Below, piece after piece: positions 35,136 to 39,422 of a DNA stretch of 64,000 bases (positions are counted from its first letter, which is position 1; each line of letters opens with the position of its first letter). Under the pieces are notes generated by a model that worked only from the letters and a program-made list of their open reading frames with translations, made no database searches and was not told where the DNA came from. Location of the stretch: assembly GCA_964587725.1 (NCBI GenBank), contig CAZPLO010000001.1:108471-172470 (forward strand), read 5' to 3'. This DNA is from an uncultured archaeon. Its GTDB lineage: Archaea > Altiarchaeota > Altiarchaeia > IMC4 > SCGC-AAA252-I15. The translations under genes were made by a program, and so were the position numbers.

Positions 35136-36119
35136 CTAGACCACCAAAACATTGGAGACGGAGTAGAGGGCCAGCAGCGCGAACAAAACCTCCAACAGTA
35201 TTATAGTAGACACTAGTTTCCGCTCGGACACTCCGCTGTACATGTTCATCACCAGCCGGCCCAAACCGAACACATCCCGTCTGTCGTCGCACACCAGCCT
35301 GCCTTCTTTGAGGCCGCACCAGGAATCCGCCTTGAACCCGCTGCGGGCCTTCAGGAACAGCTCGACAAAGAAGGGGGCAATCAGTATCACACCCACCTTC
35401 TCGATGTTCCCCACTATTACGGAAGAAGCCACCACAGCCCCCACGGTGAGGGTGCCGACGTCCCCTATCAACACCTTAGCCGGAAACCAGTTGTATTTCA
35501 GGAACGCGAGTAATGCGCCGAGCATAGCCAGGACTACTACGGCAGCCTCCACGTTTCCTGTGGCGTAGGCGACCACAGCCACTGTAGAACACATCACCGC
35601 ACCCAACCCGGCCTCCAAACCGTTGAAGCCCGCGAGCATGTTGGTGGCGTTCGACGCTCCCGTAATAGCCAGCGGCACCAGCACCAGAGCATAGAATACT
35701 CCGAAGTCCACCGGCCCCAACAGGGGAACCTCCATGGTGGTGACACCAGCCTTAACCGCCACCAACGGCAGAGCCGCGAACACCGGAAGCAACGCCTTAA
35801 CCCGCTGGCTCATCAGGAACAAATCATCTATGATGCCGACCAACGCCATCACAACCACAGTCGACAGACACGCCAGCAACAGCGTTAGATTCATCTCAAC
35901 ATGCACGACGTCGAAGGTCGTCAACGCGATAGCCAACAGCACACCCACTATGAAGCCGCCCACCACAGCCAACCCACCCATCTCCGGCAACACCACCTCC
36001 CCAGGCTTGTTCATGTCCCGGCCCACAATACCCGCAGCCCTCAGCCTGCCCATAAGCCACGGAGTAACCGCATAAGTAAAGGCGAACGACGACGCCAACA
36101 CCCAAAGCAAACCCAACAT
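35136..36119 (-). CDS. Polyprenyl-phosphate GlcNAc-1-phosphate transferase (MraY/AglH/GPT family)
   Basis: GRDMNK, PEMGG, GIIDD, NATNMLAGFNGLE and YNWFPAKVLIGDVGT; start at the ATG at 36119. Confidence 0.9.
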   Translation of the reverse strand: MLGLLWVLASSFAFTYAVTPWLMGRLRAAGIVGRDMNKPGEVVLPEMGGLAVVGGFIVGVLLAIALTTFDVVHVEMNLTLLLACLSTVVVMALVGIIDDLFLMSQRVKALLPVFAALPLVAVKAGVTTMEVPLLGPVDFGVFYALVLVPLAITGASNATNMLAGFNGLEAGLGAVMCSTVAVVAYATGNVEAAVVVLAMLGALLAFLKYNWFPAKVLIGDVGTLTVGAVVASSVIVGNIEKVGVILIAPFFVELFLKARSGFKADSWCGLKEGRLVCDDRRDVFGLGRLVMNMYSGVSERKLVSTIILLEVLFALLALYSVSNVLVV

Positions 36120-36242
36120 CACACACCACTCAAAAAAACATATTATATTCAATAGTTAAATCACCCAACGAAGCAACATATATAAAGAAGGCAGGCCCTA
36201 TACATATCCCAGAACGGCTCGCTCCGTTCACACGCGCTGCGA

Positions 36243-36748
36243 GTGCCCCCTAACGGGGGCACGCACATGAACCTCCCGAAGAGGGGATACAAAAAAATAC
36301 ACACATACAACACGCGGCCGTAGTGTAGGCACGGCTTGCTCCGTGCACACGCACGGCGCACATCAGCCCTCATGGGCTGAGTGCACCACAAAAAGGCCGC
36401 GCACACAAACACAAACCAATGAAACCCGAACAAACAGGTGGATAAAAAAAACACATACAAAACGCGGCCGTAGTGTAGCCTGGTTATCACTCGAGGTTGC
36501 CAATCTTGCGACACGGGTTCGAATCCCGTCGGCCGCAAACTGTCACGCCCAGTTTACATGCGCAGCGGGTGCCCCCCCACGGGGGCACGCACTAGAGACA
36601 CGACTCCCGTCAAACACCGACGGGATAAGCAAGCCCCAGAGGCAATCAGAATCCCGTCGGCCGCATCAGCTCACATCGAAGCAACATCCTGTCACAAACA
36701 AGACGGGGTAAGCGAGTCCGCAGGACGAGCGGAATCCCGTCGGCCGCA
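36243..36748 (+). repeat. tRNA-Gly fragment repeats and repeated hairpins around the intact tRNA
   Basis: 36301-36328 matches 36451-36478 at 27/28 positions (upstream flank plus 15 nt of the tRNA 5' end). The 17-nt tRNA 3' end gaatcccgtcggccgca recurs at 36649 and 36732. The gtgcccc...gggggcacgcac hairpin occurs at 36243 and 36569. Confidence 0.9.
36464..36537 (+). tRNA. tRNA-Gly (GCC)
   Basis: Acceptor stem gcggccg/cggccgc, anticodon loop tt-GCC-aa, T arm acggg-ttcgaat-cccgt; CCA not encoded. Confidence 0.9.
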
Positions 36749-36807
36749 TCCTATCTTTTTTTCGATGACAGTGTCTTTTTATACTGTGGTTCCAGTAGTT
36801 TGGTACG

Positions 36808-37680: not shown

Positions 37681-37881
37681 ATGGGTAGGATTAAGCAGAC
37701 GTACTTGAAGCGGGTTGCGGAGAAGCTGGTGAAAGAGTATCCGGACACCTTCACCACCGACTTCCAGGACAACAAGAGAAAGGTGCAGAGCCACACCGAC
37801 ATAACCAGCAAGAGCATCCGCAACAAAATAGCGGGTTATTTGACCAAGAAGATGAAGCAGAAGGCTAAGGAAGCCTCCTAG
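37681..37881 (+). CDS. rps17e: 30S ribosomal protein S17e
   Basis: MGRIKQTYLKR, FQDNK and SKSIRNKIAGYLT. Confidence 0.95.
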   Translation: MGRIKQTYLKRVAEKLVKEYPDTFTTDFQDNKRKVQSHTDITSKSIRNKIAGYLTKKMKQKAKEAS

Positions 37882-38657
37882 GTTCTATAGCATTCCTCTT
37901 TGAGGACACAGCCCCCGCACTTCTGCGGGATACCGTGGGGGCATACGTCGGGGACCACCCCATCCAGGATTTCCTTCACCGAGTCGCGGGCGTATATCAC
38001 CTGCCTACGGAGTTTCTCCGTGAACAACACCGGCTTCCTCTCGGCCGCGCGCGTGTATTCTATGAAACCGTGCGGTATCCTTTCACCGAACCGTTCCTCC
38101 AACAGCATCCCGTATCCGCACAGTTGCACCCGGTCGCCGTCCCAACCGAAGTCGTGTGGGACGCCTGTCTTGATTTCAACCGGCTCCAGAGAGTCGCGGC
38201 GCATAATCTTGTCCACACGACCCTTCAACCCCAGTTCCTCCGACTTGACTGAATACTCAGTACGCCACGGCGTAACATATTCAAGCGCTTTTTCGAAGCC
38301 CATGTCCGACACCATAGCATCCAGTTCCATGCGGAGACAGTCCAGCTCACGCATCATCTCACCCCTGACAGAAGATATGAATTCACCGTAGGATTCACTC
38401 CACCGTTCCGCAAAAATGTAGGGGAGGTCCTGGAGAACCGCATCCAACTCCGTCTTCATCATGGAGTCGACGTCTTCCACAGACTTCATCTTATTCAGGA
38501 GGCGGGCCTGCCGCATAGACAGCTCCCGCCGGACGGCGTGGCCTACGACGCCGCGGCCCTGCTCCGGCGACTCCGGAACCCTTACCTTCAGGACGTTGGA
38601 CAGGTAGATGCTGCGGGGACAGTAGACGTACCTGTTGAGGTCTGAAACGCGAATCAC
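37878..38657 (-). CDS. Stand-alone Cas4-like PD-(D/E)xK nuclease with Fe-S cysteines
   Basis: YVYCPR, GRVDKI, VEIKTG, QLCGY and C-terminal C...CGGC...C; no cas1 or array in the window. Confidence 0.85.
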   Translation of the reverse strand: MIRVSDLNRYVYCPRSIYLSNVLKVRVPESPEQGRGVVGHAVRRELSMRQARLLNKMKSVEDVDSMMKTELDAVLQDLPYIFAERWSESYGEFISSVRGEMMRELDCLRMELDAMVSDMGFEKALEYVTPWRTEYSVKSEELGLKGRVDKIMRRDSLEPVEIKTGVPHDFGWDGDRVQLCGYGMLLEERFGERIPHGFIEYTRAAERKPVLFTEKLRRQVIYARDSVKEILDGVVPDVCPHGIPQKCGGCVLKEECYRT

Positions 38658-39293: not shown

Positions 39294-39422
39294 AGCGGGG
39301 TTGAGCAGCCAGGAGTGCTCGTCGGGCTCATATGCAAAACCCTCAGGTTTTGATACACCAAAAACCTGTTAGGTTTTTGCTGTGTAACCCGAAGGCCAGT
39401 GGTTCAAATCCACTCCCCGCTA
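39294..39422 (+). tRNA. Initiator tRNA-Met (CAT) with a 54-nt intron at 37/38 (39333-39386)
   Basis: A1-U72 acceptor stem agcgggg/ccccgct, three G-C pairs at the base of the anticodon stem, T arm ggttcaaatcc; removing 39333-39386 restores ct-CAT-aa. Confidence 0.9.

Follow-up and report, generated by a model that had tools for sequence, protein, structure and literature searches.

How archaeal tRNA genes gain introns, become split and shed fragments is a long-standing question that has been argued from few loci and from the similarity of introns. The window analysed here, a stretch of 64,000 nucleotides from an uncultured archaeon of the Altiarchaeota, raises the question at a single gene, a tRNA-Gly that lies among displaced copies of its own 5′ and 3′ ends. 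What placed spare gene ends on both sides of a complete gene, and how did that gene survive? The initial annotation offered three readings: stacked att scars left by repeated integration and excision, a miniature tRNA-targeting element, or tRNA-mimic RNAs.

All parts of the locus are oriented as the tRNA-Gly and lie between a single TATA-like box and a single T-run (Table 1). The TATA-like box ATATATAAAG and the next ~25 nt are conserved upstream of tRNA-Gly in a genome of the same genus (G001), and by its sequence the box is the probable native promoter of the whole tRNA-Gly unit. Oligo-T tracts terminate archaeal transcription, and the seven-T run is probably the terminator of the unit. A scan of the locus for bacterial promoters and terminators was uninformative, the host being archaeal. 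The genes flanking the locus encode a GT4 glycosyltransferase and an S49 SppA peptidase, in agreement with the earlier statement that no integrase is present. At permissive thresholds, the tRNA was the sole Rfam 15 match in this locus and in 12 metagenome loci. A split-tRNA reading was considered and dropped: tRNA-Gly(GCC) is complete in one piece and the fragments are unique to this locus. The fragments of split or permuted tRNA genes are needed for the mature tRNA, whereas these merely duplicate a whole gene, and a BHB-type intron lies inside a tRNA gene, whereas this one is uninterrupted.

Table 1. Features of the tRNA-Gly locus, with positions counted from the first letter of the window.
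Feature	Position	Strand	Evidence
TATA-like box ATATATAAAG	36178-36187	+	read directly from sequence
E1: hairpin 1 (36212-36229), ACACGCG linker, hairpin 2 (36243-36262), small hairpin 3 (~36272-36287), A/C-rich tail	36212-36313	+	covariance model R1
Displaced copy of tRNA-Gly positions 1-15, ending in D-loop	36314-36328	+	exact 15-mer
E2: hairpin 1 (36329-36346), variant hairpin 2 (36358-36384), GGCCGCG (36395-36401), A/C-rich tail	36329-36463	+	R1 match, 38.2 bits
tRNA-Gly(GCC), intact, intron-less, CCA not encoded	36464-36537	+	ARAGORN; Rfam RF00005, 61.2 bits
E3: variant hairpin 1 (loop UCACGCC; 36537-36555), ACATGCG linker, hairpin 2 (36569-36588)	36537-36595	+	R1 match, 61.3 bits
Degenerate T-loop + T-stem 3′ strand piece CGACTCCCGTC	36601-36611	+	10/11 identical to 36520-36530
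Unit 1: 10-nt arm complementary to next 3′ fragment, conserved insert (UAAGCRAG, small hairpin)	36617-36648	+	inverted repeat 10/10
Displaced tRNA-Gly 3′ end, copy 1, T-loop position ~57 to discriminator 73	36649-36665	+	exact 17-mer
Unit 2: spacer, 8-nt arm GACGGGGT, conserved insert of unit 1	36666-36731	+	78% identical to unit 1 over 49 nt
Displaced tRNA-Gly 3′ end, copy 2, adjoining native trailer	36732-36748	+	exact 17-mer
Seven-T run	36756-36762	+	read directly; only oligo-T tract on this strand from 36190 to sppA

The 5′ fragment starts 150 bp upstream of the start of tRNA-Gly; its 15-mer has just two copies in the genome, and together with its flank it forms a 35-nt repeat of 91% identity. 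The 17-mer GAATCCCGTCGGCCGCA of the 3′ end occurs at 36521, 36649 and 36732 (spacing 128 and 211 bp) and is absent elsewhere in the 1.56-Mb genome. By shuffling, 0.00 and 0.01 chance matches are expected for these displaced ends. The initial description of one 5′ fragment with its flank and two perfect 17-nt 3′ ends was therefore accurate, and the piece at 36601-36611 adds a fourth T-arm piece to it. In the fold of 36538-36648 this piece pairs with 36619-36624, as an alternative partner of the unit 1 arm. For each spare end of the tRNA-Gly a complementary stretch lies nearby, 36395-36401 in the case of the 5′ fragment and the unit arms in that of the 3′ fragments, and genomes G001, G002 and G017 each have a matching tRNA-Gly 5′ fragment. 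The flank repeated alongside the 5′ fragment belongs to an element, as its A/C-rich tail, and is no obvious promoter. We also considered the sequence just before E1 as a homologue of the 5′ fragment (9/15 matches) and judged it to be native leader, because G001 shares this sequence.

The short REP-like hairpins noticed at first proved to be three copies (36212-36266, 36329-36386 and 36537-36592) of one structured element of ~55 nt, with a shared design of hairpin 1, ACAYGCG and hairpin 2. E1 is the top match to covariance model R1 (87.4 bits; fold z = -4.0), and the orthologous G001 locus lacks it. The E2 tail abuts tRNA position 1, its GGCCGCG is complementary to the 5′ fragment, and fragment and element together form a closed three-way fold (-49.1 kcal/mol, z = -4.3); G002 has an orthologous E2-like element after its 5′ fragment. 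In E3, which is also absent at the tRNA-Gly locus of G001, the outermost pair of hairpin 1 uses the discriminator A of tRNA-Gly, and many genomes of the order have its 25-mer at 96% identity. Modules of this type also occur as canonical introns at the anticodon loop, in tRNA-Arg(UCU) of this genome and in tRNA-Thr(UGU) of the sister-genus genomes G008 and G019. E3 can be aligned over its first 38 nt with the beginning of the tRNA-Arg(UCU) intron, and E2 hairpin 2 recurs within the tRNA-Thr(UGU) intron.

Downstream of E3, the two units are related beyond their tRNA part, as had been claimed, and the proposed gacggg/cccgtc pairing that mimics a T-stem forms in unit 1 a 10-bp stem of -23.7 kcal/mol (z = -4.3). 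Copies of the unit 1 module also lie behind tRNA-Val and on contigs C8 and C23, and the genomes G001, G018 and G003 have it too. These units are hairpins with a conserved T-loop insert, and they are retained behind tRNA-Gly in four genera: G001 has the unit 2 orthologue directly 3′ of its tRNA-Gly, where the unit arm pairs incompletely with its fragment, and G018 has a compensatory change (GTCGGGAT/ATCCCGAC in place of GACGGGAT/ATCCCGTC). Across loci, arms match their own fragments at 8.2/9 positions versus 6.2/9 in cross pairs; the excess is modest, since G/C-richness is common to all T-stems. In 5/13 loci there is a stretch of at least 6 nt complementary to the acceptor strand, versus 3% in cross-comparisons. 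As candidates for the insert, a K-turn and a bulge-helix-bulge were rejected by eye in favour of a symmetric tandem G-A loop; that of unit 2 is a 3x3 internal loop with tandem G-A pairs, unlike the canonical bulge-helix-bulge. The T-arm-like hairpins are explicable without a tRNA-like function.

Unit 2 and the 17-mer that follows it make up an 83-bp unit, which has been amplified in tandem in the source population. In Logan contigs from four DNA metagenome runs of one study, the k-mer depth of this unit (36660-36741) is 1.7-4.4x that of its flanks, and an 83-bp back-joint with matching loose ends is present in the four runs. The unit is therefore under-counted in the assembly, by a local collapse and not a spurious repeat. 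Tandem Repeats Finder reported no array in the assembled sequence, because the assembly has just one full 83-bp unit. Loci of this kind collapse when assembled from short reads, and they make tRNA gene calls too numerous or ambiguous.

Is this a peculiarity of one gene? Covariance model R1 has 8 significant copies in this genome and 1-8 copies in each of 20 of the 49 genomes of the order, the comparison genomes being mostly incomplete MAGs and this genome 92% complete; no copy was found in the class's other orders (12 genomes). Few sites are common to sister species. This genome and G001 have 7-8 R1 sites each and only the trpE/trpG copy in common; tRNA-Glu and tRNA-Phe carry R1 in G001 and none here, and the tRNA-Gly of G001 lacks unit 1 and has a different element after its 5′ fragment. 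In G033, G019 and G008 the tRNA-Gly has no fragments, and the G033 site is empty. Relatives with similar units or insertions, which the initial annotation had treated as decisive, thus do exist, and presence and absence vary (G001, G002, G017, G018 and G003 versus G033).

The family is closely tied to tRNA genes, and nearly all copies adjoin either a tRNA loop or end or the boundary of another gene. A tRNA 5′ fragment, 3′ end or 3′ fragment adjoins 28 of the 33 genomic R1 copies inspected. The suggested search of other tRNA loci showed copies of a gene's own end of at least 12 nt (5′ upstream or 3′ downstream) at 14 of the 26 tRNA genes of this genome, compared with 0/26 in reversed-polarity controls. 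Ends or fragments of tRNA-Gly, -Asp, -Met, -Glu, -Thr, -Val, -Asn, -Arg, -Trp, -Ser, -Phe, -Ile, -Pro and -Ala precede R1, and so do several protein genes, beside which copies occur in either orientation. Elements are joined to tRNAs in the D-, anticodon- or T-loop, or else at an end (position 1, or following position 73). The direct repeats (12-68 nt, around inserts of 60-150 nt) begin 0-3 nt from tRNA position 1 or stop at 73, and at protein genes they do so at the start or stop codon.

Toxin-antitoxin and other cassettes in this genome are likewise bounded by repeats of 26-48 nt at gene ends. Many repeat pairs are identical, and at five loci the coding-end pairs differ at 24 synonymous versus 5 non-synonymous codons. 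The displaced trpE tail has 67% identity to the resident one and is as diverged as the G001 orthologue. As judged from these sequences, import of the displaced coding-end copies would fit better than duplication in place. The synonymous-only pattern could reflect a constraint on the displaced copy, such as a 15-codon mini-frame that keeps trpG translationally coupled. This pattern is a testable clue that the duplicated end may be imported and not copied in place.

One account of such an array is classical integration. Tyrosine-integrase elements like those of SSV or pNOB8 would have entered tRNA-Gly repeatedly, brought replacement ends and later eroded to 60-150 nt, and the hairpins would be integrase arm or core sites. 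The direct repeats do reconstitute the target gene and end at its boundary, stopping exactly at tRNA position 1 or 73 like the identity blocks of integrative elements (PMC3293823). The 3′ units resemble attR, in which an element-derived T-stem 5′ strand is followed by the host 3′ end, and displaced gene ends resemble copies from other lineages. This genome also has one PF00589 match, on another contig (C27), and that integrase lies 1.2 kb from a tRNA with a 27-nt 5′ repeat. However, this single integrase in a 92%-complete genome would face at least 20 insertions, and no integrase lies beside any copy examined. Instead of using few sites, one family is found in either orientation, at over 12 tRNA species as well as at protein-gene boundaries. 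The repeats vary from 12-17 nt to ~60 nt, and part of the array is simple tandem amplification. In IMG/VR (2.9 million viral contigs) neither end module had an exact match, and the high-GC variant had none among the PLSDB plasmids.

Other enzymes fared no better. No recombinase ORF lies between the repeats in ~90 inspected copies, and neither RVT_1 (PF00078) nor the IS200/IS605 Y1 transposase (PF01797) was found in the 92%-complete genome. A small GIY-YIG nuclease was tried as mobiliser and rejected: its 80-aa gene occurs in 11 of the 49 genomes, 3 of them R1-positive, and 17 R1-positive genomes are without it; no GIY-YIG-like ORF lies near 40 metagenome copies. Nor does any of the copies examined contain or adjoin a nuclease gene, and this genome has a single small GIY-YIG gene. 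No integrase, reverse transcriptase or Y1 transposase explains the elements, so the mechanism given below is one that we infer. We regard integrase-made scars as improbable. The att-scar reading was right in form, because each repeated event left a displaced tRNA end; that these are classical integrase att sites is argued against by more than 12 tRNA species, protein-gene boundaries, 12-68-nt repeats, 60-150-nt inserts, a lone integrase elsewhere and the 83-bp tandem amplification.

Could the hairpins and T-arm-like units instead be functional RNA modules, selected in the pre-tRNA transcript as processing or stability signals, as decoys that sequester spare ends, or as regulatory or tRNA-mimic RNAs? 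Their structure speaks for this. Covariation in 14 genomic copies supports both R1 hairpins (0/500 shuffles), and across 40 independent metagenome copies pairing holds in 98% of cells, with compensatory changes in 11 of the 15 pairs. Even contigs of 65-73% GC keep the apical hairpin and the ACACGCG linker unchanged. The retention of the unit behind tRNA-Gly in four genera, the compensatory change in G018, the local complement of every spare end, the excess of acceptor-strand complements and the common orientation of all parts between one TATA box and one T-run point the same way. That compensatory changes preserve the hairpins and that the T-arm-like unit has been retained could indeed mean an RNA function. 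As an explanation of the locus, though, selected RNA modules are unlikely. The family is patchy across the 49 genomes, sister species have almost entirely different sites, copies beside protein genes take either orientation, the G001 arm is not fully paired with its fragment, and Rfam 15 has no match; single-stranded DNA during mobility could equally require hairpins.

A third account starts from RNA: intron-type RNAs would have been ligated, for instance by the splicing ligase, to pieces of tRNA severed within loops or at the mature ends, copied into DNA and recombined into the gene. The junctions do fall on RNA landmarks, at the mature ends (positions 1 and 73) and in three loops (D, anticodon and T), and modules of the same kind are bona fide introns. 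But reverse transcriptase was not detected in the 92%-complete genome, position 73 is never followed by CCA at any junction inspected, and both orientations occur beside protein genes, which together make an RNA-mediated origin very unlikely. That short-read mis-joining created the repeats is scarcely credible: the assembly does have 100-N scaffold gaps flanked by identical 55-mers elsewhere and does mis-count the 83-bp unit, but every repeat here is shorter than the assembly k-mer, independent Logan contigs from the same four runs agree with 36000-36678 to within 0-1 differences, the architecture is shared by orthologous loci of genomes that were assembled independently, and the error, contrary to the misassembly named at the outset as a refutation, is a collapse and not an invention.

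The reading that we consider likely is that tRNA-Gly is an intact gene and a repeated landing site for gene-free, hairpin-rich elements of ~60-150 nt that belong to a modular superfamily. Among the three initial readings, this supports the miniature tRNA-targeting element, as a repeated, patchy and structurally constrained family most of whose copies are joined to tRNA sequence. On the 5′ side, E2 would have come to lie between the displaced positions 1-15 and the complete gene, and E1 in the leader. On the 3′ side, E3 would have entered right after discriminator 73, followed by partial T-arms with a looped-in conserved insert, each ending in a displaced ~57-73. Insertion would have proceeded without a cis-encoded integrase or transposase and with a duplicated or imported gene end. 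Each event would have left one complete tRNA gene, because two copies exist of the gene end beside the insert. Direct repeats, once a pair of them is in place, may recombine unequally and so expand the array. A single transcript probably covers the locus, beginning at the TATA box (36178) and ending at the T-run (36756). The tRNA would be excised from it by RNase P and tRNase Z, so the extra parts would be harmless passengers. The repeat boundaries hit position 1, position 73 and start or stop codons more exactly than random staggered cuts and selection predict, an observation that counts against this explanation.

A broader idea is possible, although we hold it tentatively and think it on balance doubtful. 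One modular family of ~100-nt hairpins would comprise tRNA introns, the inserts that create fragments and the cassettes at protein-gene boundaries, and would spread without an enzyme of its own by an undescribed route through loops and helix ends, the incoming DNA carrying the end of the target gene or copying it by template switching. If this is true, the locus is a live example of the origin of archaeal tRNA introns, tRNA fragments and split tRNA genes, and the invariant hairpin-ACACGCG module, shared by Altiarchaeota and high-GC soil organisms, marks a cross-phylum mobile system. Insertion products, fresh or old, accompany over half of the tRNA genes in this lineage, sister species differ at nearly every site, and three states of the same modules are visible: intron, flanking insert with duplicated tRNA end, and intergenic cassette. 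The process is therefore open to comparative and population genomics. The elements lie beside more than half of the tRNA genes and are also tRNA introns, so the locus may show how broken and intron-bearing tRNA genes arise.

Several known systems resemble parts of this picture. Archaeal tRNA introns were reportedly transposed among tRNA genes in Thermoproteales, in work attributed to Fujishima et al. in 2010. As there, related short sequences occur here at different positions of different tRNA genes, the loop positions are those of non-canonical introns, and a mobile-DNA origin has been the idea behind introns, split tRNAs and fragments alike. Unlike those introns, the modules here also lie outside the tRNA: upstream in the leader, downstream of position 73, and in the spaces between protein genes. 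To our knowledge, the duplicated gene ends that accompany the modules here have not been described in the papers on intron transposition.

Miniature elements are a second comparison, and Ca. Altiarchaeum hamiconexum is reported to have the highest density of conserved MITEs among archaea (PMC11602168). Like MITEs and REP repeats, the elements are small, multi-copy, non-autonomous, hairpin-forming and intergenic. Unlike MITEs, they have no terminal inverted repeats joining their ends and no target duplication of fixed short length (12-68 nt here); they consist of one conserved hairpin end module with interchangeable second modules and a variable A/C-rich tail, and they are sited at tRNA ends.

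Archaeal integrative elements of the SSV1 and pNOB8 types leave partial tRNA duplications as attL and attR, and a related model has been given for tRNA-Thr fragments in Caldiarchaeum (Sugahara et al. 2012, PMC3293823). Common to these and to our locus are an intact reconstituted tRNA, a displaced 5′ or 3′ fragment in direct orientation and boundaries at the tRNA ends; the Caldiarchaeum model also proposed that insertion, tRNA fragments and intron gain are linked (PMC3293823). The att duplications differ in that the inserts here are gene-less and of 60-150 nt, with no adjoining integrase in the copies examined, that one element occurs at many tRNAs and protein-gene ends with repeats down to 12-17 nt, and that several events are stacked in 650 bp.

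The last comparison is insertion with long target duplication, known from kilobase restriction-modification cassettes of bacteria and mechanistically unexplained (Nobusato et al. 2000; Furuta et al. 2010, PMC2853133). In both cases foreign DNA is enclosed by direct repeats, tens of bp long, which extend over gene ends, without a transposase or integrase, and later amplification occurs, as described for such insertions via their flanking long repeats (PMC2853133). Of the related genomes, G001 lacks E1, E3 and unit 1 and G033, G019 and G008 have a tRNA-Gly free of fragments, the repeats vary from 12 to 68 nt with neither RVT_1 nor Y1_Tnp at hand, and the toxin-antitoxin cassettes of this genome follow the same pattern. 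In contrast to the restriction-modification cassettes, the host here is an archaeon, the passengers are mostly structured and non-coding, of ~100 nt, with a strong preference for tRNA loops and ends, and the two copies of a repeat can show only synonymous differences. This mode of insertion would thus be extended to archaea and to tiny non-coding passengers.

The single intact tRNA-Gly(GCC) gene lies between a minus-strand GT4 glycosyltransferase gene and a plus-strand gene for the signal-peptide peptidase SppA, and it is surrounded by displaced copies of its own ends. The locus is on contig C1 of a 48-contig, 1.56-Mb metagenome-assembled archaeal genome (G000, 92% complete). The initial annotation had described a 5′ fragment 150 bp upstream and two perfect 17-nt 3′ ends downstream, with no integrase nearby. 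All were recovered: the 15-nt and 17-nt words occur nowhere else in G000 and none are expected from shuffled sequence, and inspection of the flanking genes revealed no integrase. The proposed kinship of the two downstream units also held, as units 1 and 2 match at 78% over 49 nt and an arm in each pairs with the next 3′ fragment.

Coordinates of features (bare positions refer to the window, others to contigs of G000)
Feature	Position	Remark
TATA box	36178	
Copy of tRNA-Gly nt 1-15	36314-36328	exact; 150 bp upstream of gene
tRNA-Gly(GCC)	36464-36537	ARAGORN and Rfam
Degenerate T-arm piece	36601-36611	additional
Two copies of last 17 nt of tRNA-Gly	starting 36649 and 36732	exact; downstream
83-bp unit	36660-36741	
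T-run	36756	
Cas4/Csa1-like nuclease gene	37878-38657 (-)	PD-(D/E)XK; stand-alone
tRNA-Met(CAT)	39294-39422 (+)	~52-nt intron in anticodon loop
tRNA-Arg(UCU)	C1:253148-253327	L079; Rfam 56.3 bits
Element between trpE and trpG	C7:25915-26085	L053
Tyrosine integrase	within C27:12572-15529 (-)	502-aa frame
Repeat-bounded cassettes	C3:26240-26954, C37:5374-6150, C5:54192-54795, C11:156-1695	
GIY-YIG gene	C1:3950-4192	L046; 80 aa, YhbQ/COG2827-like
CRISPR-like array	C5:44152-46470	~66-nt period
Runs of exactly 100 N	C4:82229, C1:215153, C28:4648, C22:about 2736-2835	between identical 55-mers

From the TATA box onward, the order is hairpin element E1 (in the leader), the 5′ fragment, element E2, the tRNA, element E3, the degenerate T-arm piece, unit 1 and a 3′ fragment, and then unit 2 with a 3′ fragment, repeated at least twice, before the T-run. 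Because all components share one orientation and no other oligo-T tract interrupts them, we infer that a single precursor transcript likely spans the locus. For every spare tRNA end, a complementary stretch lies nearby (36395-36401 for the 5′ fragment, the unit arms for the 3′ fragments). These complements are either relics of whole tRNA arms or a guard against misfolding of the real tRNA. The Cas4/Csa1-like gene lies 1.1 kb downstream of the array. The tRNA-Met(CAT) gene has no own-end fragments nearby; it is missed by default ARAGORN and mis-called as Thr(tgt) in intron mode.

We checked the assembly against Logan contigs from four DNA runs, all from one microbial-mat study. Local misassembly, named in the initial annotation as grounds for refutation, does not apply to 36000-36678, which was recovered in all four runs with at most one difference. 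It applies only as a collapse farther on. The assembly graph branches from 36649 onward, the depth of the 83-bp unit exceeds that of its flanks by factors of 2.4, 4.4, 3.6 and 1.7 (one value per run), one contig contains a back-joint from 36731 to 36649, and loose ends show the unit succeeding itself. Thus, the assembled sequence is a collapsed tandem array of unit 2 plus the 3′ fragment, and the copy number of the unit is apparently variable. The 100-N runs between identical 55-mers are assembler scaffolding marks and were left out of the analysis; a second copy of the element seen on C22 may be a scaffolding artefact.

Own-end copies are not confined to tRNA-Gly. For 14 of the 26 tRNA genes of G000 predicted by ARAGORN, 12 nt or more from one of the gene's own ends are exactly repeated nearby: the 5′ end upstream (six genes, sought within 400 nt), the 3′ end downstream (11 genes), or both. 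Reversed-polarity controls gave 0 of 26 in each case. The 3′ side has a recurrent order: intact tRNA, linker or E-type element, copy or mimic of the T-stem 5′ strand, T-loop insert, displaced 3′ end and native trailer. The inserts fall into several conserved types. Units 1 and 2 of tRNA-Gly belong to a UAAGCRAG-hairpin type, which is also found behind tRNA-Val, on two other G000 contigs, and behind tRNA-Gly(GCC) in the same-genus relative G001 and in G018 and G003. Arm and fragment have each changed in G018 with pairing preserved, and in G001 there is one mismatch; across loci, the contrast in arm-fragment complementarity is only modest.

The REP-like hairpins noted initially proved to be E1, E2 and E3, three copies of one ~55-nt element. 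It consists of a 6-bp hairpin, the linker ACAYGCG, a second hairpin of variable sequence and GCAC. The upper stem and loop of hairpin 1 are invariant (ACGG-CTCGCT-CCGT); E1 and E2 continue with a small third hairpin and an A/C-rich tail, and E3 has a variant hairpin 1 with the loop TCACGCC. Both hairpins show compensatory changes among 14 genomic copies, with the observed score reached in 0 of 500 shuffles and collapsing in slid controls. The covariance model of the family (R1) has eight significant matches in G000. Copies occur in 20 of the 49 genomes of the order, one to eight in each (14 of 20 genomes from the family of G000, 4 of 22 from the largest of the other families), and in none of the 12 genomes from the other orders of the class. 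The other G000 copies are behind 5′ fragments of tRNA-Asp, tRNA-Met and an intron-containing tRNA on C22, and between trpE and trpG. Relatives contributed another 25 copies, of which 21 adjoin tRNA pieces. Some come immediately after a 5′ fragment truncated in the D- or anticodon loop, and the full tRNA lies 60-200 nt farther downstream; others start 0-5 nt past discriminator position 73 or lie behind a displaced 3′ fragment. The remaining four are at protein-gene boundaries, flanked by 28-63-nt direct repeats. The E3-type hairpin occupies the same contexts in 18 loci of 12 genomes, combined with other second modules, and the elements are therefore modular.

The same modules occur inside tRNA genes. 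The tRNA-Arg(UCU) of G000 has a ~105-nt anticodon-loop intron made of an E3-type element, whose nucleotides 1-38 align with E3 (hairpin loop identical, linker nearly so). Downstream of this gene, part of the T-arm recurs, interrupted by a T-loop insert, together with a displaced 3′ end of 15 nt. In G008 and G019, hairpin 2 of E2 recurs at ~90% identity within an 82-nt intron in the anticodon loop of tRNA-Thr(UGU); this intron has the hairpin-linker-hairpin layout of the element. An A/T-rich hairpin module is found in introns of the C22 tRNA, tRNA-Glu (G001) and tRNA-Asn (G002), between a tRNA-Val 5′ fragment and the tRNA-Val gene, and behind tRNA-Ser(GGA).

Occupancy varies among relatives within the conserved synteny of glycosyltransferase, tRNA-Gly and sppA. 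The tRNA is bare in G033; in G019 and G008 the leader holds other modules, with no fragments; in G001 the 5′ fragment precedes an element unlike that of G000, and there is a single 3′ unit; and G002 has two stacked 5′ fragments, with an E2-like element behind the first. Between G000 and G001, whose trpE genes are about 76% identical, only one R1 site is common of the seven to eight in each.

A metagenome search with an exact word (hairpin 1 plus ACACGCG) returned 40 copies on 38 contigs, all R1 matches (26-88 bits), of which about 21 were tRNA-linked by inspection. In these copies 98% of pair cells are paired and 11 of 15 pairs are compensatory, in an alignment that is model-fitted and has its inner stem set by the search word. 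Six contigs of 65-73% GC (L103, L111, L117, L120, L122 and L123), presumably from soil or rhizosphere samples judging by their names, carry the element at protein-gene ends, with an invariant hairpin-ACACGCG module, a G/C-rich second hairpin and repeats of ~25 nt on either side. In one case it comes after an enoyl-CoA hydratase gene and is accompanied by a 25-nt repeat; L122 carries the element twice in tandem. As the hosts of these contigs are unlikely to be Altiarchaeota, the end module probably extends beyond this phylum. No copies of the element were found in IMG/VR (exact matches to either end module) or in PLSDB (high-GC variant). The repeat census of G000 also contained the CRISPR-like array, with repeat ends GTAGGATTGAAAT and GTTAGAAACAGAC.

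The protein-gene sites bear on how the duplicated ends arose. In G000 and G001 (L023) the element sits between the overlapping trpE and trpG genes, where a duplication covers the trpE terminus from an internal ATG codon through the stop codon (48 nt). The spare tail forms a 15-codon mini-frame that retains the overlap with the trpG start. In G001 it is identical to the resident tail, but in G000 the two differ at 10 positions, all synonymous. At five loci, differences between the two copies were mostly at synonymous sites (synonymous/non-synonymous codon differences: trpE tail 7/0, a G013 gene 10/1, enoyl-CoA hydratase tail 2/0, L091 1/0 and L128 4/4). The displaced trpE tail of G000 is 67% identical to the resident tail, which is 69% identical to the G001 orthologue; displaced and G001 tails share 84%. 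Since the displaced tail is as distant from the resident one as is the G001 orthologue, and the differences are biased to synonymous sites, the pattern is unexpected for a freely decaying in-place duplicate and fits an imported gene end or strong constraint.

End duplication is also found without the element. Four G000 loci hold either a toxin-antitoxin cassette (resembling ParDE, HicAB or RelE when the translations are inspected) or an ATPase gene. Each of these inserts sits between perfect direct repeats of 26-48 nt located at the ends of host genes, and none contains a recombinase or a hairpin-1 module. Thus, the duplication seems to be a property of the DNA insertion mode in these archaea rather than of one element. 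The edges of the repeats match functional boundaries: within 0-3 nt of tRNA position 1, at tRNA position 73, at the start codon of hisF or at the stop codon of trpE; this coincidence and the synonymous differences go beyond a simple staggered-cut model. A homologous gene end could have been imported if a small circle, or a fragment in ends-in configuration, recombined with the gene; alternatively, the displaced copy could be under strong constraint. More speculatively, junctions at loops and helix ends with 1-2-nt overlaps would be consistent with template switching during replication where single-stranded tRNA DNA is folded. The only tyrosine integrase of G000 is 1.2 kb from an intron-containing tRNA with a 27-nt 5′ repeat, on a contig that stops short of a possible second att site. 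Neither RVT_1 nor Y1 transposase was found in this 92% complete genome. The small GIY-YIG gene was rejected as a partner: its presence, in 11 of the order's 49 genomes, shows no correlation with that of the element, and the single one of G000 stands alone among unrelated genes.

No description of the element family or of its triple role was found in the literature searched. In form, the tRNA-Gly locus agrees with insertion with long target duplication, a process of unknown mechanism in which the repeats then mediate amplification (PMC2853133), and it resembles the model proposed for Caldiarchaeum tRNA-Thr (PMC3293823). Stacked att scars of integrative elements, suggested in the initial annotation, are similar in form; however, such scars are defined by an integrase and site specificity, both lacking here. 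The family is not a MITE in the strict sense; among archaea, Ca. Altiarchaeum is reported to be the richest in conserved MITEs (PMC11602168).
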